From: a phage
NCBI GenBank assembly: GCA_033193195.1
Contig: GCA_033193195.1_4326.1
Strand: one strand, 5' to 3'
Length of the DNA stretch: 45,624 nt
Part shown: piece by piece, positions 1 through 43,897 of the stretch
Layout: each line of letters starts with the position of its first letter
How positions within the stretch are numbered: the first letter of the stretch is position 1
Program-made: the position numbers and the translations under genes
Notes under the pieces: generated by a model
What the model was told of the DNA's origin: nothing
The model's database searches: none
What the model saw: only the letters and a program-made list of their open reading frames with translations

Positions 1-24
1 AAAAAAACGAGAGAGGATTTCAAA

Positions 25-696
25 ATGGTTGTTTGGTCTTTATTTGATGGTTCAGGGCTGGCTGTGAAAGATTGGGCTGAGGCTGGTCACTAGTGCTACT
101 GTTTCAACTTTGATGAGTCTGACCACGGTAGTTACGGGGATTTAAATGCAAAATTTGAACATGAGAACATCACCTACGTTAATGCCTGGATAGATGGCAA
201 CTTCGACTTTGATGTGAAGCCTGATATCATTTTAGCGTTCCCGCCGTGTACGGATTTAGCCGTGAGCGGGTCAAGGCACTTTGAGCGAAAGCGACTGGTT
301 AACCATAACTTCCAGATTGAAGCTGCGGATACATGTAAAGTTGCTTTTAACTTGGCTAATAAGTACGAAGTCCCATACATGATTGAGAATCCAATCAGCG
401 TACTGTCATCACTCTGGAGAAAGCCTAATAAGACTTTCCACCCATATGAATACGGAGGCTATTTGCCGGAAGATGATTTACACCCGTTTTTTAGCGACCT
501 AATAAAGCCAAGAGACGCATATCCTAAGAAGACATGCATTTGGTATGGCAATGGGTTTAAATGGCCAGAGGCGATTCCTGTGGACGTTAACGATGGATTC
601 TCTGACCAATACAAGAAGCTTGGTGGGAAGAGTAAGAAGACAAAGGTAATTCGCAGTCTAACTCCTCGCGGTTTTGCAAAAGCAGTCTTCATAGCA

Positions 697-714
<18 letters not shown>
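25..714 (+). pseudogene. DNA (cytosine-5) methyltransferase-like gene interrupted by in-frame TAG at 91..93
   Basis: ATG 25 preceded by GAGAGG; N-term MVVWSLFDGSG (motif I-like), then TAG at codon 23, same frame continues to AFPPCTDLAVSG (PC motif IV-like) and MIENP (ENV-like); track ORF 214..714 is the downstream part. Confidence 0.5.
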
Positions 715-1012
<298 letters not shown>

Positions 1013-1013
<1 letters not shown>

Positions 1014-1948
1014 TGGCTCAGGGTATCTATATAGACCTTAATGACGGAAGGAATCCAATGACAATTACCGCAGGGATGAGGGCGTTAAACTTCGCTGGAA
1101 ACTTTAACGTTAATAGTGGTGGCTTTAGTAAGACATTCTCAATTCAGGGAAATGAAGGTGCATCACGTTTTTTAATTCCTAATAATGGTGCCTTCAGCTT
1201 CGAACTTGACAGGGGTGTTGAGGTTTATTATATAAGTGGATTTTCATCAACACCTACATCTGGGACAATCTCAATAGGTTCAGAGAATGGATATTCTGAC
1301 AGGGTCACGTCATTTTCAGGGACTGTTGTTGAGGTCTTGATGGCATCAAGCGGCCAGGGCATATACGTTGCTGATAGTTGTGATTTTGCATCAATAACAA
1401 CTGCTGGCAGGTTGCTAATATGCAAGTACTCTAAAAGGGTAACTTTTACAGGCTCATTCAATCTCCCTATTTATGGAATACCGTTCGGTAAGTGGGATAA
1501 TGATGGAGTTTCAGTTGAGTACAACGGAAGCGGCCAGCTTATTTGCACAAACATAAACACAGGAAATACTGGTGACACCCCAGGAAGTGTAACTATGGAC
1601 CTTGTGATATTTCAGATGGTTGCACCAACGCCTGGGCCTGGCATAAACATTTTCAACTCTAACAATGTTTGCACATTCTCAACATTGACAAGACCATTGG
1701 TTGTGTCTGGATTTATAAGTCTGTCAGGAAGCAATCAATACATAGGTAGTTCATACTTCCCAATACTTAGATGTGGGTTTAACACCAGGGCGACACGTGC
1801 TTACAAGGAGTTGCGAAATAAGGGAATTGTTATGTCCGGTGGATACGTTAGATCTGGTACTGGATCAAGGATTGTGAGATACGAGATTGGTAATAGACCA
1901 GATGTAACCATATCAACTCCATTGCCATACTTGCCTGATATGTATTAA
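1013..1948 (+). CDS. hypothetical protein (beta-rich, Gly/Ser-rich)
   Basis: ATG 1013 overlaps upstream stop (TAATG) with AAGGAG upstream; track start 1004 is GTG. Confidence 0.45.
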
Positions 1949-1952
1949 AGAT

Positions 1953-1975
1953 AAAGCCCCTTTCGGGGCTTTTAT
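1953..1975. terminator. bidirectional rho-independent terminator between convergent genes
   Basis: hairpin AAGCCCC-TTTC-GGGGCTT flanked by T/A runs. Confidence 0.6.
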
Positions 1976-1976
1976 G

Positions 1977-4900
1977 TTAGAACGTGCCTACAATAACTTT
2001 CCCTCCATTCGGTAGGTTAACCGTGATTCCATTGCCGTTAATCTGAACCGTATTGTTAGTTCCGTTAAATGCAAAGTTACCACTATCTGCGTAAAGCCTT
2101 CCATGAATTTCTGCATTACCAGACTTCTCAATCCTCCACCCAGCACTTCCTTGAACAAAGTTGTTTGATTGAATCGAGTTACCAATCTTCGCGTTAGTGA
2201 TTGAACCATCCTGAATCACTGTGCTTTGAATGAATACCTGATTACCTTCAACTACGAAAGGCAATGACCACTGACCGGAACCTGAACTAACACCGTTACT
2301 GATTGCGAACCTGTTAGCATCAAAGATGACCTGACTACGAACATTGCCATCAGAACCAGTTAGCGCCATACTCATGCCAGAACTGTACTCAACGCCATTG
2401 TATTTGAGGCCAAGTTTAATCCCGTACTGAGCACCAATTGAATCGGCAGTAACGTAAGTGTCCAGCTTCTCATTTAACGCAGCCTCATTATCACCTAGCC
2501 TTGCAGATAAAGCAGTGTCCGCAGTGGTCCTTGCTTGCGTCTCTTCCGCTAGCGCCGTATCAATCCTTGTCAATGAAGCTACAATCTCATCATCAATCTG
2601 CGCCTTAAGCTGCGTCAGAGCCTCTACGCGAGCCCTTTCTTCATCGGCGATAAGATTCACAGCCTGAACAAATTCGGCCTTCCTCTTGCCGTTTTCCTTC
2701 GTCATTCTACGCACGTCACCATCATTAGCCAGGGCGTTCTCAATTATTGATTCCGCTTGCGCCTGAATAGCTCCGTTTGACTCAATGGCATTCTGTTGGA
2801 GATACTTGAACCCATCTGAGTTTTCTATATCAACCTTAATATCACCAATGATTGACGACACATCATCGCTTGCCATACCCCTTACAAAATCAGTCCATGG
2901 TGAGACGTTACCAATCTTGTCAATCAGTCGCGCCCTGTACCAGATGACCTTTCCAGCAGGAAGTGTAGTATGCCAGTACTCGTAACTCGGGTAAGGCACC
3001 AGAGTCAGAAGGCTAGCATTCTCTGGTGTATAAGTACCATCACCATTGTCGGCTACTTGCTGCAATTCAGTGTATGACGTATCGGCTGAGTTTTCAGGAA
3101 ATCCCCACTTAACCCTAATGCCGAATATTTCATCATCTGAAGCGGTGATTACTGTAGGTGAAGAAGGGGTCCCAATCTTGCCTGTGAGGCTTACTGAAAC
3201 AATGTCAGACCATGCGGATACGTTTTCAGTATCAGAAACGGCCCTTACGCGAACCTGGTAAATTCCGGCATAGATACCTTCAATATCAACCTCTGTGCTT
3301 GCTGTGCGCGGCACGTTAATCCAGTTTCCGTTCTCCTTGCGCCACTGGACCGTGTAGGTTTTCGCGTACTGAACCTTGTCCCACGTGATTACCATTGTCT
3401 CAACTGATAAACCCTGAACAACCTTACTGTAACTGCTAACCTGAACATTCTCTGGTGCCAGCAGTGTATCCGGCTCGACGATTGAAGTCGGCCTATCAGT
3501 AATGTTTACGCCGTAATCAATTTCGTCGTATTTGTTAGGGTCGTACTCAACCGCTGTAATCGTGTAACCAAACGCATCATCTCCATCGCTGTCTGCTTTT
3601 TGAATACCGGTCACAACATATTGCTGAAGAGCAAGATTTTCCTTATCAATCGCAAATACTGTGTCAGGCTGAGGAGTAAAGCTAAACGCTGTATTAAGTT
3701 GCAGCGTCATACCATCTTCAGATACAGATGCAATGGTCCTGTACTCTGGCATTCCATCAGGCTTGTTAATAAGAATCCTGTCGCCAGCAGCAGCGTCAAT
3801 CTTAAAGGGTACGAAAACCTGCAACCCACTAACAGACTCAATACGCCCAGAAAGATTAAGCGTGTAGTTGCTAGACCATGCCTGGTCATTAACTGCAATC
3901 ACTTCACCAATCATTGGGATCATGCCTTCCAGACCAGTAGTGAAACTGATTGTCTCACTGCGCAAGTTTGTCTTTAACAGCCATCGACCGCGTCTGTTTG
4001 CCTCACTCCTGCGTGTACATCCAATAGCGGTAAGGTCAACAGGGTTGTAACCAAAACGCCTTGTTGCCTCTAACTCGAATACTGGCTCAACATCCTGTTG
4101 GTATGAGTTTTCAACGTCATCAAACTGAACGTTGGCAACCGTGTAAAGTGACTTATCGCTACCAAATGTACGGTTAAAAACACCATCAACAACGTTGTCA
4201 TTGGTGAATACGTACGATGGTTGACGCGGCTTATCGACAACAATCCCTATCTGCTCGCCGTCATAGAATGTCAGCCCACGGAAGATAGAGCAAATATCAC
4301 GGATTACCTGATATGCTTCAACTTTCTGCTGAATGACAACATCACACAGGTAGCGCGGCTCAACTCCACCCTTACCATCTGGAACCATCTGGTCACAGAA
4401 TTGCGCCGCCTCATACAGACCCCACTTATCAATAGTAATGCCAAGCTCTCGCTGGTCAAGTCCGTAACGCTGATTCGTCACCAAGTCGTAAAGAACCCAC
4501 GCCGGGTTATTGGAATACGCCATCTTAAAGGTGCCGTTCCAGGTTCCGCTGTAAGTCCTTGTCTCTGGGTTGTAGTTATTTGGAACGCGAATCAACTTCC
4601 ACTTCTTCTTGATTGAAATCGTCGGGATTCCGTTAGGGAAGAGGTCAGAACTGAACTCAACGTAAACCAGAGCTGTAAGTGGGTAGCGGAATTTAGCATC
4701 AATTACTTCCTGATAGGTCGTAATTTGCATGTCGTTAACCAGCGTCGAACTTTCTGAATCTGCCGTGATCTTACGAACCCTCACCAACGCACTCGAGAAC
4801 TCAGCAGGAAGGTTAACCCTGATACTTCTGTCGTACCCGCTAGTTGTCTTGCCATTAACTACTCCGCGCGTGTACTCAGTGTATGTAGCGCCATCAACGG

Positions 4901-19750: not shown

Positions 19751-19779
19751 TTTTTTACTCCTCTCGTTTGCGTGAAGTA

Positions 19780-21509: not shown

Positions 21510-22034
21510 TTACAGCTTACTAATCACAGACTCCAGAGCTTCCTTCATCGTTTCGACGTCGTTAGCAGAAGAGTTATTGCTTATAGTGATCTCCTGCGGT
21601 TTGTCGATTCCAAGCTCCTTGGAAATCATGCCGGGGTTAACAATGCCAGACGCTGCCAGCTGATACTTCTGCTCTCGAATCACGGAATCAATGAATGTCA
21701 TCACATCGTCATAACCCGCAGACTTCCTCCATTTCTCAATGGCACTTGAAGTAACGCCGCAGTAAAGGCAGAACCCTGTTAACGTGAATACTCGTGGCTT
21801 ATGCACAAGGCTCTCAGTGACCACGCCCTGGAAGCTGGCCGTCTCAGCCGCTTTGATTGCATTATCCTCTGCCCATGAGAAGTATTTCACAGCCAAGTCG
21901 AATAACTGTTCTGGGGTCATGATTCTGTTTTTGGCTAGAGTTGTAATGTCGGAATATTTCTTGTTGTACATAGCCTTGAAGTTGCCAGAGCGAATCTTTT
22001 CTTGCGCATGGCTGGTGAAGTTTTCGTCTTTCAT
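21510..22034 (-). CDS. terminase small subunit
   Basis: 174 aa immediately upstream of large subunit. Confidence 0.6.
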   Translation of the reverse strand: MKDENFTSHAQEKIRSGNFKAMYNKKYSDITTLAKNRIMTPEQLFDLAVKYFSWAEDNAIKAAETASFQGVVTESLVHKPRVFTLTGFCLYCGVTSSAIEKWRKSAGYDDVMTFIDSVIREQKYQLAASGIVNPGMISKELGIDKPQEITISNNSSANDVETMKEALESVISKL

Positions 22035-23528: not shown

Positions 23529-23975
23529 ATTTTATCTTCACGCTCCTTCCATAGATTCATCAGCTCGAAGTACATCATGGCAACCTCGCCAGTCTTAGCC
23601 TCATCCATCATCCGTTTAGCCCACTGGCTTTGTGTTTCGTAGTTATCCATTAGTAAACAAGAGCCTCGTGGTTTGCTATGTAAAGCTCCTCATCGTGCTT
23701 GTTTTTAATGAAGTACCCATTGCCATCTTCGCTAGGCTATGCATAGAATACGTCGCCATGCTTTAAGCGCGCCATATAATCATCCTGGCCAATGTATACG
23801 ATCTTAATCATGCAATCACCTCACTTAAATTATAGTTCGTTAGAATCGCTTTTAGCGTCATCTACGGCTGCTGAAATCATGTAAATAATCATGAAGCCCA
23901 AATGACCAGAGTAACTATGGCAATGCTTCAACCAGAACTTCATCCATCATTAACCCAGTATTCATTTCTCTATCC

Positions 23976-24764: not shown

Positions 24765-25286
24765 CTATTTAGTCTCCTTAATCATTTCCTGGTATGCGTT
24801 AATCATTGATACTGCACCCTTAAGTTCATCACCTTCAAGACCAGCGACGCTTGGTGATAGTTTCAACAATCGAGCCTTGAACCTTTCAATGGTAGCCGCC
24901 TCCCTCTCTTGCTCTGCTTTGCTTCTTGAGCCGGATTTTACAGCGCCAGGAACCAGGCTAAGTGATGCGCAGTATGTCTCACTCTCGCCCTCAAAGTCGG
25001 TAAAACTAAGTGAGAACCTTGAGCGCACGTCAGCCGCCTTAATCTCAGGCATTCGGCTTACGGTGTTTGAAACGTATGACGCTTTTAGTTTTGGCATGTG
25101 GTATTCACCACCAGGTAGAACCTCCTCACCACTTAGCGATACGAACGTCTCACGACTCATGCCGAAGTATTGACGAGCAATCATGGTCACAGGGACTGTG
25201 CACACTTTGTCTTCTGACTTGAGCGCCTGACTCGCCATGTATCGAATGATTTCACCCAAACTTACTGCTTCTTTATGTTCTGACAT
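24765..25286 (-). CDS. hypothetical protein, first gene of leftward unit from control region A
   Basis: 173 aa ORF; sigma70-like TTGATA-N16-TACCAT upstream. Confidence 0.5.
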   Translation of the reverse strand: MSEHKEAVSLGEIIRYMASQALKSEDKVCTVPVTMIARQYFGMSRETFVSLSGEEVLPGGEYHMPKLKASYVSNTVSRMPEIKAADVRSRFSLSFTDFEGESETYCASLSLVPGAVKSGSRSKAEQEREAATIERFKARLLKLSPSVAGLEGDELKGAVSMINAYQEMIKETK

Positions 25287-25886
25287 ATTCGTTACTCCTG
25301 ATTGGTTGCTCTTCGTTAAGATGAAACCATGGTATCATGAATATACGCGTTATCAAGTGTTATGTTGTGTTTATATCTGCATTGGTTACGCTTTTTGACC
25401 TCTCAGCCCAGCTATAGCTGGTGTAATTACCCTGTGTAAGATTTTACGCGGATTCGCCGGGGGTATGCATATGTATCTATATAGATAAAATTAGTAGTTT
25501 TCATAGAAAAACTATCGACCCATCAATACGACCAATCTACACCATATACATACATATATATAATAATAATAATAATATAGTAAAAGGTTGATATATATAG
25601 ATATTATTATGTAACCATTGCGTAATCTAGCGTGGTAGGCGTGTATGATTCTTCGGAAGCGCACCTCATATACACACCATAACTTCGATAACGTGTATAT
25701 CCAAATTGGCTCAGCAAGAATCAAAATCAACTTGTATGGTAGTTCATCCACCATTCATTCACCCTCACATCAATCATTGCAAATCCCGCAACAATCAAAA
25801 ACATCATTGCATTCGATGCAATATTGTTATATGTGCAATAGTAAGATTAATCATTGCAATATCTGCAACAATAGATAAATCCAACG
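25287..25886. promoter_or_regulatory. control region A: AT-rich noncoding divergent-promoter region, paralogous to 45108..45572
   Basis: shared blocks with region B (CAGCCCAGCTATAGCT; ATAATAATAATAATA..GGTTGATATATATAGATATTATTATGTAAC); palindrome TATCTATATAGATA; TTGCAA-core repeats 25760..25880. Confidence 0.6.
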
Positions 25887-25932
25887 AATAGCACTTTTTG
25901 CTAAAGACATTTAGGTATTGCGGAGTTATAGT
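25887..25932 (+). promoter_or_regulatory. family promoter for rightward early unit
   Basis: AATAGCACTTTTTGCTAAAGAC, TATAGT 25927..25932. Confidence 0.55.
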
Positions 25933-25959
25933 TCGCTCCTCAACAACGAGGAGGGATAT

Positions 25960-26154
25960 GTGAAGGTAAAAATAATAGCGCTAAGTAAGACAGATGGGTT
26001 TGACGATGACGAATACGAATTCTACGGCCTTGAACCTGGAGGTGTTTACGAGGTAGTGGCAATATACGAAGAACTTGAATCAATGGTGATAAAGAACAAG
26101 AATGGTAAACACGTAATGGTATACAACCACGAGGTAGAGTACTGTGAAGATTAA
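25960..26154 (+). CDS. small hypothetical protein (paralog of 26329 gene)
   Basis: GTG 25960 after GAGGAGGG; track ATG 25918 lies upstream of predicted -10. Confidence 0.45.
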   Translation: MKVKIIALSKTDGFDDDEYEFYGLEPGGVYEVVAIYEELESMVIKNKNGKHVMVYNHEVEYCED

Positions 26155-26896: not shown

Positions 26897-26928
26897 TACT
26901 CCATCGAAACGAAAGAGAGCAAGAGATC

Positions 26929-34440: not shown

Positions 34441-34478
34441 TTTCTTTCTCTCTTTGTGTGTTTCGTTTCGATGAGTTG

Positions 34479-34939: not shown

Positions 34940-36649
34940 TTAATCCTCCATCGTGAATGATTTGTTGGCGATAATGTCTTGAGACTTCTGGTTTTTACGG
35001 TGTGTGATTCTCAATGGGGCACGGAATAGATGTGCATTTGTCATAATCATTCTAGCATTACGCAATCTGCCAATTCTGAATGCCTCAGTCCTGTTATCGA
35101 TGTGTGTTAAGCAGAAAGCCTTCCATTTAACAGAGCAAACGCGATGGTCTGATTCAGGGAAGAATGTTTCATAAGCTCGGAACTTATCTCCACTATGAGC
35201 CATTACCTCATATGAAGCAACGATCCCTGACTGGTTCTTTGTTAACCCAATCTTGAAGTCATAAACTCGCAACCAGTCCCCCTTACGATACATTTTTCCT
35301 GATAACTTAGCATTCGGGTCTATGAGCATCTCACCACAGCATCTGCAATTCTTAGCTGCAATATCATTCTTCTCACCGCATCCTTTCTTAATGATAGCTT
35401 TGGTCTGTGGGTCCACTATATCTTCACACAGTCTAAACTGAAAGAAGTGCTCACAGCGCTTCCCGTCAATTACGTTATTGCAGCGCCTGGCTAATGGAGA
35501 GTTCACATAAGAGCATGCCTGACAGATTCTTGGCTCACCAACACGCTTTCTTGCTGACCTAAATTTCTGGTCTTGTACCTCTTCTATAATTGGGTCGAAG
35601 TAAAGTTCAGCCATATCATCAAGCGTTCCAGCAAAATCAAGAACAACATGGTCATCTTTTACCATTCCAGCTTCTTTGTGCTTCTTCTTAAGGATACGCA
35701 TACCACGACCAAGCAACTGAATGAGTAGAGTAATGCTACCAACCTTCCTCAGGATAATGCTTGTATCCCACGGGGGGCAGTTTACGCCAGTTGTGAGGCA
35801 ACCAATCTGAAATATGAACTTATATTCTCCGTTGGCTGCCTTCTCAAGTATCTCTCTACGCTTATTCTCACCAGTGGAGTTGGTAACTATCGCCCAAGTA
35901 ACACCTTCTGGAAGTGCGGCTGCCGCCTCCTCGCAATGCTGTTTGCTAGCGCAAGTTACCAATGCAGCATTCCTTGTTTCCATAAACCTAGCAGCAAATC
36001 CCATTATCTTTTGTGTCATCGTTTGGTTTTCGTGAATCTTTGCAGCCATCGCATCCATTTCTTTCTTGCTGAAGTCCTTAACCCCATCACTTCCATCAGG
36101 AGTGAACTCACTAAGGTCGTAGCCCAAATCACCAACTTCACCGTAGACAGTAGGAACAACGAACCCCAAGTCAACAAGGTAGCTGGTTGGCACTTGCATT
36201 ACAGTTTTGCGCCAGAATCCACGGACATTTGGGTTACTAACTACAATGTGGTCGTTGTTACGGTACGGGCTACCAGTTAACCCAAAGATACGAAGTTCGC
36301 GACCGTACTTCTCCTTGCATCGACGCTTCATTTCGGTAATGATTAACGTGTATTGCGCGCGACCAGTGCCAAGAAGCCCGGTATTCACACCATCCTTAAA
36401 GACCATCTCACCCTTCTTCGTGCTCATCTGCTCGAATGTTTCCTCATTCTCTTCAGCTTCTACGATATCCATATGGTCCACCATGTGGCAATTATGTGCC
36501 ACGACCCCGTCAGCAATGAAATTATGGTGCTCAGGCATCTCTATATCCCAAACAAGTTCCTTGCCAATGGGTGAGATGTCTTTAATTTTGCTTGATTTTG
36601 TATTCCACGCCATTTTACATGTGCTTACTAATTCTCTTAAAAAACTCAT
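34940..36649 (-). CDS. SF2 helicase C-terminal fragment preceded by intein C-terminal splicing segment
   Basis: N-term ..ELVWDIEMPEHHNFIADGVVAHN then CHMVDH; helicase motifs LTGSP and QLLGRGMR; C-terminal Cys-rich zinc-finger-like region; ATG 36649 with GAGG upstream. Confidence 0.75.
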   Translation of the reverse strand: MSFLRELVSTCKMAWNTKSSKIKDISPIGKELVWDIEMPEHHNFIADGVVAHNCHMVDHMDIVEAEENEETFEQMSTKKGEMVFKDGVNTGLLGTGRAQYTLIITEMKRRCKEKYGRELRIFGLTGSPYRNNDHIVVSNPNVRGFWRKTVMQVPTSYLVDLGFVVPTVYGEVGDLGYDLSEFTPDGSDGVKDFSKKEMDAMAAKIHENQTMTQKIMGFAARFMETRNAALVTCASKQHCEEAAAALPEGVTWAIVTNSTGENKRREILEKAANGEYKFIFQIGCLTTGVNCPPWDTSIILRKVGSITLLIQLLGRGMRILKKKHKEAGMVKDDHVVLDFAGTLDDMAELYFDPIIEEVQDQKFRSARKRVGEPRICQACSYVNSPLARRCNNVIDGKRCEHFFQFRLCEDIVDPQTKAIIKKGCGEKNDIAAKNCRCCGEMLIDPNAKLSGKMYRKGDWLRVYDFKIGLTKNQSGIVASYEVMAHSGDKFRAYETFFPESDHRVCSVKWKAFCLTHIDNRTEAFRIGRLRNARMIMTNAHLFRAPLRITHRKNQKSQDIIANKSFTMED

Positions 36650-37629
36650 CTTGTGCCGACCTCGTTGTTATTGATACTGAGTAAAGCTCTCTCTTTTTCT
36701 TGCCGCAAATATAGCTTATAACCTTAACTCCGTCATTAGCAATAAATGCTATTAGCGCATCAACTACTGATTGAACTTCACGCCTGCTAAATGATTCGGT
36801 GTGGATTTCTACAACCCTCCCCCCTGAGCTTACAGTGCAATGACCATCATCACCAAAGTAAGCAGCCCAACCAACTGGATCAAGCTCTCTGCATATCTTT
36901 CCAATATCGTAACCATCCTTAGAATTTCCGTACTTATCAGCATATGAATCCAGAACTTTCGTACATGATGTTGATACGCAAAACCAGTTGTCGCCAAATC
37001 CAGGGTTTTTCTTCTCCCTGTATCTAGGGTTTAGTTTTGCAAACCTTTCAACCTTGCTTAGTGCGTGCTCCTTATTTCCATATTCCAAGATAGCCTATGC
37101 GTTCCTTTTTCTGTATTTTTAATCAAGCAACCATCACCAGCCATTGCCGCAAGAATGTTTTGATGTAAAAAGTCATCAACCTCCATTTATGGGTTGACGG
37201 TTGAATTATGATGCCCCGTTCTGTAATCCAAATAGAAATCGAAAGGGTTCTTAAGAAGTACGCCTAACCCCTTGCTTGAATGCGGCATAACTTTTTCACC
37301 ACAGCCACACTTGCACGCAGAAGCTTTTTCGTAAATTTGTCCTGCGAGCCGTCTAGCGACAGATTCATCCCAATACGAAGTTTTCCCGCTTCTACCCAGC
37401 AGCCGTTCGAATAAAGTTTGTGTGTACTCGTGCATTTTATTTCCTCTCCGCTTTCTAATTTAATTGATAATACATGTCTTACACCATTAGTAAAAACTCT
37501 TTTTGGCTTATGATAGAAGTAATCACCAGTGCTTTCGTTTATGCATTTTATTTTATGATTGATAAGGTCTTCGCTATCAATCCTCATCATCCCTGAATCG
37601 GTGGTTATCATCGTGTCTCCAGTTAAGCA
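36491..37629 (-). other. intein inserted in helicase DECH motif; LAGLIDADG endonuclease core disrupted
   Basis: blocks CLTGDTMITT and CTSTHKL..W in N-extein frame; ILAAMAGDGC and WAAYFGDDGHC in two other frames; in-frame TAA 37187..37189; length 1139 bp is not a multiple of 3. Confidence 0.7.
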
Positions 37630-38073
37630 CTCATCTATCGCGATAACAGCAGGAGCATAGTCACCAAGCCCCTTAAACAAGCCGTTAGCAGCCGTTCCCT
37701 CACTAGCCACTATGGTTGGATAGTAAACTGATTTAACGTTAAGGCCAGCGCAATAGACGCTATTACGGATGCCGAAATTACGAAGTTCCTCTGCGTTCTG
37801 GCTGATAATCTCTGACTGGCGAGATAGGACCATGTAAGGAAGGCCAAGCTGTTCCATTCGTTTCCCAATCATGGCGAGTATAATTGTCTTACCAGCAGAC
37901 ACCGACAGGTCTGCGATGAATGGCGCTTCGTACTTGCCAATAGCCTTACCGATTGCGTCAAATGTCACGCACTGGAATTCGTAAGGCGTTATGTCTCCAA
38001 ACTGGTAATCTTTCTGAATCTGTTTAATTTTCTCTTTATCAAAGTTCGCCACTAAGCGCTCTACTGGAAGCAT
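37264..38073 (-). CDS. SF2 helicase N-terminal fragment fused to intein N-terminal splicing segment
   Basis: Walker A SVSAGKT, ..VIAIDE then CLTGDTMITT; stops 121 codons into intein. Confidence 0.75.
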   Translation of the reverse strand: MLPVERLVANFDKEKIKQIQKDYQFGDITPYEFQCVTFDAIGKAIGKYEAPFIADLSVSAGKTIILAMIGKRMEQLGLPYMVLSRQSEIISQNAEELRNFGIRNSVYCAGLNVKSVYYPTIVASEGTAANGLFKGLGDYAPAVIAIDECLTGDTMITTDSGMMRIDSEDLINHKIKCINESTGDYFYHKPKRVFTNGVRHVLSIKLESGEEIKCTSTHKLYSNGCWVEAGKLRIGMNLSLDGSQDKFTKKLLRASVAVVKKLCRIQARG

Positions 38074-38169: not shown

Positions 38170-38643
38170 ATGTGTGAAATTGACAAGCGAACTATCAACG
38201 GCAATAACGGAACCATCCGCACGCAAGACAAGAAACAGCGCAAACGACCGTCAGGCTACTACGTATTGAAAGATGAAGTAAAGGCTGGGCTACGAGCTCG
38301 TCTGGAGATGGTTCTTGATTTCTACGGCACGAAGGCCAATATCGCCAAGCAGTTAAATGTATCTCACCAGACTGTAGAGCAATGGTTTGATCGCGGGATG
38401 ATTTCGGCTAGAGGTGCCCAGAGGGCTCACAATGCATACAAGCGAAATAAGGAAGGCTTTAGAGCTACGTTCTGCCGACCAGACCTGCAATTCGACGGAA
38501 ACGGTAAGCCATTAACGCTTAGATGCAAGAAACGCCATATGCTGCGGGTTGTTACCGAAGCTGAACTAGCAACAAAGCCACCATGTCGACCATGGCGCAA
38601 GAATAAGATTGCCAACGAAGCAGCACGAAAAGCTAAAGATTAA
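38170..38643 (+). CDS. HTH DNA-binding protein, candidate transcription regulator
   Basis: GTKANIAKQLNVSHQTVEQWFDRG helix-turn-helix-like segment; GAGGTAA SD. Confidence 0.55.
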   Translation: MCEIDKRTINGNNGTIRTQDKKQRKRPSGYYVLKDEVKAGLRARLEMVLDFYGTKANIAKQLNVSHQTVEQWFDRGMISARGAQRAHNAYKRNKEGFRATFCRPDLQFDGNGKPLTLRCKKRHMLRVVTEAELATKPPCRPWRKNKIANEAARKAKD

Positions 38644-43867: not shown

Positions 43868-43897
43868 TCCCCATCTCTCTTTCGTTTCGATGGGGTA

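Follow-up and report, generated by a model that had tools for sequence, protein, structure and literature searches.

The window, the 45,624-nucleotide (nt) stretch of phage DNA analysed here (contig GCA_033193195.1_4326.1 of assembly GCA_033193195.1), holds within a divergent intergenic region of about 630 base pairs (bp) an array of four 23-bp palindromes at 25773–25872. The array is tentatively read, at a probability of roughly 0.4, as that half of the packaging-initiation (pac) region which lies next to the promoter and stays outside the capsid, in a T1/Rtp-like coliphage with headful packaging; there, a small terminase resembling P22 gp3 would bind, and the first cut would fall about 25–45 bp to the left. 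Judged from sequence comparison, this reading is favoured by the position of the array outside the core promoter of the neighbouring rightward operon, its uniqueness among at least 16 like promoters, the retention in T1 of only the promoter-distal sites and, above all, its coincidence with independently derived genome ends of relatives. The window covers practically the whole genome of an Rtp-like phage in the Drexlerviridae (T1-like siphophages), and its closest record is Escherichia phage ES, with 97.7% identity over the region.

Architecture of the array

The original prediction described four strings with a TTGCAA core, clustered upstream of a rightward early promoter. All four are present, ATCATTGCAAAT at 25773–25784, CATTGCATTCGATGCAATATTG at 25805–25826, GTGCAATAG at 25833–25841 and ATCATTGCAATATCTGCAACAATAG at 25850–25874, and the cluster does lie upstream of the promoter element, stopping 14 bp short of the ATAGCAC at 25888. 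The label given to the core is inaccurate, the hexamer TTGCAA being present in only two array sites and not enriched in the window (21 found versus 26.5 expected). The true repeat unit is instead the 8-bp half-site ATYRTTGC, arranged in inverted pairs with the pattern ATYRTTGC-N7-GCAAYRAT, which places eight half-sites over about 100 bp in the following four sites.

Site 1, 25773–25795, centre 25784: ATCATTGC-AAATCCC-GCAACAAT, no mismatch to the 23-bp pattern
Site 2, 25803–25825, centre 25814: ATCATTGC-ATTCGAT-GCAATATT, one mismatch
Site 3, 25820–25842, centre 25831: AATATTGT-TATATGT-GCAATAGT, three mismatches
Site 4, 25850–25872, centre 25861: ATCATTGC-AATATCT-GCAACAAT, no mismatch

Site 2 corresponds to the string singled out earlier as a near-perfect inverted repeat, and it was recovered as such (inverted repeat I11) with its single mismatch to the 23-bp pattern. 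It overlaps site 3 by 6 bp, and the left half of site 3 is degenerate in the window phage (TTGT). Site 4 is a near-copy of site 1, the two being returned by the repeat finder as a 27-nt direct repeat (D1) with 81% identity and 77 bp apart. The site centres are spaced by 30, 17 and 30 bp, so that the array as a whole is dyad-symmetric about an axis at 25822/25823. The units are inverted pairs and not phased direct repeats, and the term iteron, which had also been proposed, is wrong in its strict sense.

The clustering reported earlier is real and far beyond chance. The three exact copies of ATCATTGCA in the window all fall within 25773–25858, six of the 52 TGCAAT sites fall in the 121 bp of 25760–25880, and YRTTGC occurs eight times in 100 bp, against a maximum of five in 500 first-order Markov simulations. 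Exact TTGC-N7-GCAA is found five times, three of them in the array, where 1.5 would be expected window-wide. Every copy of the 23-bp pattern with at most one mismatch lies within 25773–25872, which agrees with the earlier remark that a region designated B has no equivalent. The sole other near-match in the window, ATCATCGCCGCAGCAGCAATCAT at 807–829 (two mismatches), sits inside a phage lipoprotein (cor-like) gene at 783–1013 and is probably due to chance.

Conservation of half-sites and spacing

The array block is carried by about 130 phage records. Alignments of 16 and then 19 phages from Braunvirinae, Rogunavirinae and Nouzillyvirus, representing at least three Drexlerviridae lineages, contain no insertion or deletion (indel) in the 100 bp of the array across 17–19 phages, and its spacing is invariant. 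Conservation is concentrated in the half-sites, with an information content of 1.80 bits versus 1.33 bits for the N7 spacers and linkers (Mann–Whitney p = 1e-5, which is only indicative because the aligned sequences are mutually related). This level matches that of the neighbouring promoter box, at 1.89 bits, the promoter spacer reaching 0.49 bits. Site 1 shows one and the same right half-site in all 19 phages, a left half that is TTTC in one clade and a freely variable N7 spacer, while site 2 keeps its half-sites around a variable spacer centre. The left half of site 3 is TTGC in 18 of 19 relatives, and site 4 is nearly invariant. The left edge of the conserved block is formed by a short motif between the mapped genome ends and site 1.

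25755–25760: invariant TCATTC, identical in 19/19 aligned phages

Dyad-symmetric sites, conserved half-sites and unconstrained centres are together the features of an operator-type element. Additionally, compensatory changes are absent from all 24 stem pairs; all departures break pairing, and the values do not exceed those of shuffles, which argues for recognition by a protein and against an RNA or a cruciform. Well supported by the aligned sequences is the conclusion that the array consists of protein-recognised sites held at fixed stereochemistry, its conservation pattern being the one expected of direct protein recognition. Half-site conservation, invariant spacing and the lack of compensatory changes thus favour the first part of the earlier proposal, an array for a DNA-binding protein; its second part, control of early transcription, fits the geometry poorly, as described below.

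Within fast-evolving intergenic DNA, two islands are conserved, 25540–25650 and 25755–25910, the latter comprising the array and the promoter box, which are inherited together as one recombination module. T1 carries homologues of sites 1 and 2 at the same 30-bp spacing, as does one T1-like contig of IMG/VR, and in both of them an unrelated ATTCCA/TGGAAT cluster takes the place of sites 3 and 4 ahead of the promoter box. The TLS intergenic region has no TTGC-N7-GCAA site even at one mismatch, and the repeats at the equivalent place are AATCA runs and two copies of AGACCAATCGGTCT. Comparison with T1 and TLS indicates that the promoter-proximal DNA is lineage-specific, the promoter-distal sites near the ends being the ones retained deeper in the family. 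Lineages lose homology to one another at the edges of the array-plus-promoter module: on the left, Nouzillyvirus departs near 25755; on the right, many relatives do so beyond 25909; T1 departs at the dyad axis. These positions suggest recombination at or near packaging ends.

Three scans of IMG/VR complement the alignments. The scan requiring a DUF7174 neighbour returned five loci only, duplicates of GenBank phages; the DUF7174 alignment was too divergent for searching. The small-terminase scan returned 44 loci, mostly Klebsiella-type phages, in which a flank of 7 kb did not reach as far as the DUF7174 gene and the intergenic region. The pattern TTGC-N7-GCAA-N15-TTGC-N7-GCAA was too loose, nearly all of its 120 matches being coding tandem repeats; beyond these it yielded only phiEB49, Rtp, one T1-like contig and an unrelated switch described below.

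Coincidence with the genome ends of relatives

The physical ends of related genomes map to the array locus, and packaging initiation is thereby no less likely a role than transcriptional control. The position concerned and the genes on its encapsidated side are as follows.

25739–25748, minus strand: position homologous to the packaging (pac) ends of relatives, assigned by homology; packaging leftwards
24765–25286, minus strand: DUF7174 gene (homologue of rtp1, T1 ST77 and TLS gp01; Pfam PF23796; phrog_4841), at the same position in Rtp, T1 and TLS
21510–22034, minus strand: small terminase subunit, P22 gp3 homologue (phrog_606; Pfam GP3_package; PDB 3P9A, E = 2e-14)

The DUF7174 gene always adjoins the intergenic region, and further left follow small genes, a tRNA-Arg gene, the small terminase, the large terminase and the morphogenesis genes, all on the minus strand. 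For phage MSK, PhageTerm placed a pac terminus at 36,862 with packaging in the forward direction (PMC8421802), and this base aligns to window position 25739. The record of UDF157lw was re-organised to its PhageTerm terminus (PMC10838988), and its break aligns to 25746/47; the break of the Rao1 record aligns to 25747/48. These three phages come from different lineages, and their ends agree within 9 bp, 26–34 bp to the left of site 1. In MSK and UDF157lw the packaged DNA runs leftwards, towards the DUF7174 and terminase genes. The coincidence of the array with the end of a first packaged chromosome thus holds by homology only, through the ends of these relatives.

Records of other relatives point to the same region. 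The T1 RefSeq record annotates 1..2800 as a terminal repeat and begins with GTTGCATGGTGTGCAAC directly after the GCAAC of T1 site 2, its first base corresponding to window position 25822, on the dyad axis 25822/23. The Rogue1 record copies the T1 start position, and the Rtp record starts 6 bp further on. For TLS, restriction analysis places pac in the equivalent intergenic region, while the authors of SU57 put an end in the same untranslated region and state pac as not identified. Earlier work had pointed to ATATA repeats as a feature of T1 pac, as reported in the MSK paper (PMC8421802). At least 11 of about 130 records break within 25700–25900, against about 0.6 expected at random, part of the excess being depositor convention. 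Braunvirinae and Rogunavirinae share a homologous mapped cut position but differ in sequence there; the nearest conserved element is the array block, which suggests a cut placed by its distance from a conserved neighbour.

The second conserved island lies on the encapsidated side of the mapped end, so that conserved blocks at 25540–25650 and 25755–25880 flank the mapped cut.

25540–25650, no strand assigned: conserved non-coding block, an AT-rich tract of (ATA)n/TATATATAGATAT followed by GCGT(A) repeats at 25620, 25630 and 25639, visible as invariant columns in the 16-phage alignment

The three GCGT(A) repeats are 9–10 bp apart, and T1 carries GGCGTAAT twice. Either a replication origin or the pac half on the encapsidated side is a possible role of the block.

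A candidate packaging-initiation region

In the proposed mechanism, the small terminase, encoded 3.8 kb to the left of the array, or a complex containing it, would bind the eight ATYRTTGC half-sites late in infection. The large terminase would then make the first cut of the packaging series about 25–45 bp to the left, around 25739–25748, or in T1 possibly at the dyad axis, and leftward packaging would take in first the AT-rich block, then the DUF7174 gene and afterwards the terminase genes. It is possible that the AT-rich/GCGT block forms the encapsidated half of a bipartite pac. Occupation of the array may also damp the adjoining promoter at 25888 as a secondary effect. A pac site should be unique, and the occurrence of the array once in 45.6 kb together with its absence from like promoters fits this expectation. 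In T1, moreover, sites 1 and 2 adjoin the record end, far from the promoter, and it is the promoter-proximal half that has been replaced. Weaker hints are the homology of the small terminase to gp3, clusters of AATC/GATT, and a short match to the P22 pac core, whose sequence is quoted in PMC11447400.

25873–25881, minus strand: GATTTATCT, a 9-nt identity with the P22 pac core, 1 bp from site 4; a weak match, about five such 9-mers being expected window-wide by chance

The GATTTAT of this match is kept in relatives, and ATAAA.C is invariant in the alignments. Over the full length of P22 pac, only 12 of 22 positions match, and the palindromes are unlike P22 pac. On the plus strand, AATCA/AATC (GATT(T) in the packaging direction) clusters near the ends, with five copies in 131 bp at 25719–25882 of the window, four in 76 bp in T1 and five in 42 bp in TLS; a second AATCA cluster lies at about 23778–23930. 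The AATCA clusters and the P22-core match may represent a family-wide terminase signal superimposed on the palindromes.

Several points weigh against a packaging role. A spacing of about 11 bp between the half-sites of a palindrome is the hallmark of sites for dimeric helix–turn–helix (HTH) regulators, and the homologous P22 terminase reads a single asymmetric 22-bp pac inside gene 3. The array lies on the non-packaged side of the MSK and UDF157lw cuts, unlike lambda cosB, though like SPP1 pacL. All end positions belong to relatives and are transferred by homology; among them, the T1 record start and the PhageTerm ends are about 80 bp apart, and the Rao1 record break comes without a documented method. 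The small terminases are only 62–67% identical where the arrays are about 85–90% identical, and the putative recognition helix varies in their alignment, which yields no assignable specificity. Furthermore, the TLS small terminase is 52% identical, yet TLS lacks any TTGC-N7-GCAA site, and the array moves with the promoter box as one recombination module.

Position relative to the rightward promoter

On the right, the array is followed by a promoter and a cluster of small genes and a helicase gene, from 25960 onwards. Rtp, T1 and TLS share this layout, with a long gap, the DUF7174 gene on one side and a rightward small-gene cluster on the other.

25888–25907, plus strand: promoter element ATAGCACTTTTTGCTAAAGA, which fits the marbox consensus and equals the TLS 21-nt repeat
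25904–25932, plus strand: rightward promoter predicted by promoter scan, -35 AAGACA and -10 TATAGT (25927–25932)
25960–26154, plus strand: first rightward gene, GTG start, ribosome-binding site GGAGGG at 25950–25955; phrog_14327 matches residues 16–78 of a longer open reading frame (ORF)

The C119 gene begins with ATGAAGGTAAAA at the same place as the first rightward gene of the window. With the -10 hexamer at 25927–25932, the four sites lie about 78, 108, 125 and 155 bp upstream of the predicted start, outside the core promoter. They neither overlap the core promoter nor stand at an activator position from which a bound protein could act on RNA polymerase, and at least 15 other window promoters with an ATAGCAC element have no such array. 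Together with the retention in T1 of only the two promoter-distal sites, this geometry speaks against the transcriptional role claimed in the original prediction. No acceptable -35/-10 pair of a sigma-70 promoter was found inside the array on either strand, by promoter scan and by eye. Sites for sigma-54, Fur, IHF, DnaA and CRP, compared by eye with consensus sequences, were all poor matches.

Alternative readings

The packaging and operator readings are not mutually exclusive, and origin, host-factor and structural explanations are minor beside them. The strongest competitor, unlikely on balance but carrying real weight, is an operator array for a dimeric phage HTH regulator, on which four dimers, perhaps cooperative or looping, would modulate the promoter at 25888–25932 and, through it, the operon of small genes and a helicase to the right. 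Candidate binders are the Rtp52 homologue and a small early protein that has escaped recognition.

38170–38643, plus strand: HTH regulator of 157 aa, Rtp52 homologue (phrog_2856, 'transcriptional regulator'), with a weak Cro-type HTH match at residues 47–80

The palindromic form itself, with dyad-symmetric sites, conserved half-sites and free N7 spacers, favours a dimeric regulator. The core of the array, TTGC-N7-GCAA, differs by one base from that of the promoter box, TAGC-N7-GCTA (nine exact copies), and the GC-to-GC distance is 9 bp in both, so a relative of the promoter-binding protein could read the array. Wietzorrek et al. reportedly proposed that an Rtp52-type HTH protein binds the inverted repeats of the promoter box. 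HTH dimers appear to use the same geometry in an unrelated contig (L153:1192–1294; IMGVR_UViG_3300005937_000016), in which four TTGC-N7-GCAA sites with spacings of 31, 30 and 27 bp lie between divergent XRE-family HTH genes at 955–1209 (minus) and 1299–1670 (plus); judged from its layout, this array looks like a CI/Cro-type switch built on the same half-site core. Inheritance of the array and promoter box as a single module would also suit an operator, as would the distribution of the regulator, which reaches 79–86% identity in about 127 records that almost coincide with the 130 array-carrying ones. However, the small terminase and the HTH regulator show the same drop in identity outside the array-carrying phages, so co-distribution does not discriminate between them, and the window HTH protein has no similarity to the L153 regulators. 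A Pfam and PHROG scan of 50 ORFs found no other DNA-binding protein, leaving 38170–38643 as the only recognisable transcription factor among them. Placement is the main difficulty: sites at about -78, -108, -125 and -155 leave the -35, the -10 and the activator box uncovered, the array accompanies only one of at least 16 like promoters, T1 keeps just two distal sites, and the coincidence with genome ends goes unexplained. If the operator reading were true, the array would be the first promoter-specific control element defined in a family where nearly all promoters look alike.

A combination of the two functions is clearly less probable. The four palindromes would then be read by the terminase, or by a terminase–regulator complex, as a dual-purpose switch that starts packaging and shuts off the rightward operon. 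Were this so, transcription and encapsidation would be coupled at the genome end, and pac recognition in Drexlerviridae would for the first time be defined at the level of sequence, as the reading of palindromes by a P22-gp3-type terminase whose gene lies far away.

An element of a replication origin is improbable. A phage replication protein would recognise inverted pairs of pentamers, much as GAGGC pairs are recognised at the SV40 origin, and the AT-rich block 160–230 bp to the left would serve as unwinding element. The motif is unique in the genome, and the region between divergent promoters also holds a conserved AT-rich tract with GCGT(A) repeats. Those GCGT repeats beside the AT tract are, however, a better origin candidate than the array, whose units are inverted, unlike phased direct iterons, and lie at least 160 bp from the tract. 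No initiator-type protein was found; the replication module consists of a zinc-ribbon primase, helicases, ERF, an exonuclease and an SSB-like ORF, and GC skew tracks gene orientation without marking an origin.

Slightly less probable still is binding by a host regulator, with the LacI-family repressor CytR as the likeliest one, a reading that would link the element to host nucleoside status. CytR motifs take the form TGCAA-N2-3-TTGCA, the palindrome TTGCAA or GTTGCATT octamers, with TTGCA/TGCAA half-sites at flexible spacing (PMC3454398). The array offers TGCAA-TA-TTGY at 25817–25827, two TTGCAA palindromes and ATTGCATT at 25806–25813, which matches the octamer at 7/8 positions. This is motif resemblance only; flanking CRP sites are normally required, and no TGTGA-N6-TCACA-like pair was seen by eye beside the array. 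The conserved half-site, moreover, includes ATYR 5' of TTGC, outside the CytR octamer, and CytR is scarce in the cell.

A structured RNA, a DNA hairpin or cruciform, a small ORF or functionless sequence is largely refuted and very improbable: an 8-bp stem with a 7-nt loop is conceivable for each palindrome, the weak DNA fold has a z-score of -1.9 and ORFs of 61–77 aa overlap the region, but 0 of 24 stem pairs show compensatory change, Rfam gives no match, the longest ORF switches frame and strand among relatives with none conserved in frame, and neutral DNA would not stay indel-free with 1.8-bit half-sites across subfamilies.

Relation to known packaging and regulatory sites

No description of the array was found in the literature searched, and the kind of element is already known whichever reading holds. 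The pac sites of SPP1 (pacL-pacC-pacR) and P1 have arrays on both sides of the cut, those of P1 being hexamers. By analogy, the window region would resemble them as the site of a headful phage with conserved short-motif arrays spanning about 100 bp on each side of the first cut, one of which would be left outside the first packaged chromosome, and as a unique site upstream of the morphogenesis genes. It differs in its units, four 23-bp palindromes in place of direct boxes or hexamers, and in its small terminase, which belongs to the P22 gp3 family whereas theirs belong to the SPP1 G1P and P1 PacA families.

P22 pac, a 22-bp sequence (GAAGATTTATCTGAAGTCGTTA) read by gp3, shares with the window a gp3-homologous small terminase, the 9-nt core identity 1 bp from site 4, and series-initiation ends spread over tens of bp. 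In contrast to the window candidate, which is intergenic, palindrome-dominated and 3.8 kb from the small-terminase gene, P22 pac is single, asymmetric and located inside that gene; of the 12 matching positions among 22, only GATTTAT is conserved in relatives.

Among regulatory elements, lambdoid CI/Cro arrays such as L153 are alike in having several dyad sites of 15–23 bp with conserved half-sites, variable centres and fixed spacing in a divergent intergenic region, and L153 has the same TTGC-N7-GCAA core. The window array differs in lacking overlap with a core promoter and an adjoining regulator gene, and the window phage is virulent. Escherichia coli CytR operators share inverted TTGCA/TGCAA half-sites and the TTGCAA palindrome (PMC3454398), whereas the array lacks flanking CRP sites and has a longer half-site, ATYRTTGC, in a rigid 30/17/30 four-site layout. 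An element from the same phage family, the TLS 21-nt repeat and the 'Rtp52 inverted repeats' of Rtp (ATAGCACnnnTTGnTAAA), has a one-base core difference and the same GC-to-GC distance, one copy adjoining the array. That repeat is asymmetric and recurs at 12–16 promoters at a fixed distance from the -10, unlike the array, which is single and not at promoter distance.

T1-like phages are classic generalised transducers and notorious laboratory contaminants in which pac has been mapped only roughly, recent papers stating it as not identified (SU57) or placing it through its likeness to P22 (TLS). The array offers a candidate recognition element that is unique, conserved and sharply bounded; together with a consensus first-cut position, it makes pac recognition in these phages testable. 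Both would be of use for T1-based packaging or transduction vectors and for a consistent orientation of genome records.

The promoter box and other features of the window

The promoter box beside the array belongs to a family. The box ATAGCACnnnTTGCTAAA has 12 exact and about four near copies in the window.

Exact copies: 25888–25907, 5370, 11923, 19807, 23509, 24646, 26853, 31082, 34505, 40141, 43924 and 45573

The Escherichia coli marbox consensus AYnGCACnnWnnRYYAAAY is satisfied at all constrained positions, the 12 exact copies comparing with 0.09 expected. A TAnnnT -10 hexamer follows the 20-bp box by 17–19 bp in 13 of 16 copies, and by 19 bp at the 25888 promoter; such spacing is the geometry of class II MarA/SoxS/Rob promoters. 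Through this marbox-like box, the phages may engage Rob, MarA or SoxS of the host, or else a phage-made mimic. In the TLS paper, the function of the 21-nt repeat, which equals the promoter box, is listed as an open question. A leader motif, CATCGAAACGA(A/G)A, lies about 8–12 nt past the -10 of most box promoters, at or near the predicted transcript 5' ends.

Leader motif examples: 740–755; 19752–19765 (minus strand); 26905–26918; 34455–34470 (minus strand); 43875–43888 (minus strand)

The leftward promoter of the DUF7174 gene is one of the few in the window phage without an ATAGCAC box.

25329–25356, minus strand: sigma-70 extended -10 promoter for the DUF7174 gene, TTGATA-16-TG-TACCAT, from the promoter scan

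Relatives keep the -35 TTGA and a TAnnnT -10 of this promoter despite sequence difference. Elsewhere in the window, a helicase gene at 34940–38073 (minus strand) appears to be interrupted by an intein with a LAGLIDADG homing endonuclease, split over three ORFs.

37264–38073, minus strand: Hint N-terminal part
36615–37088, minus strand: LAGLIDADG
34940–36649, minus strand: intein C-terminal part and Helicase_C

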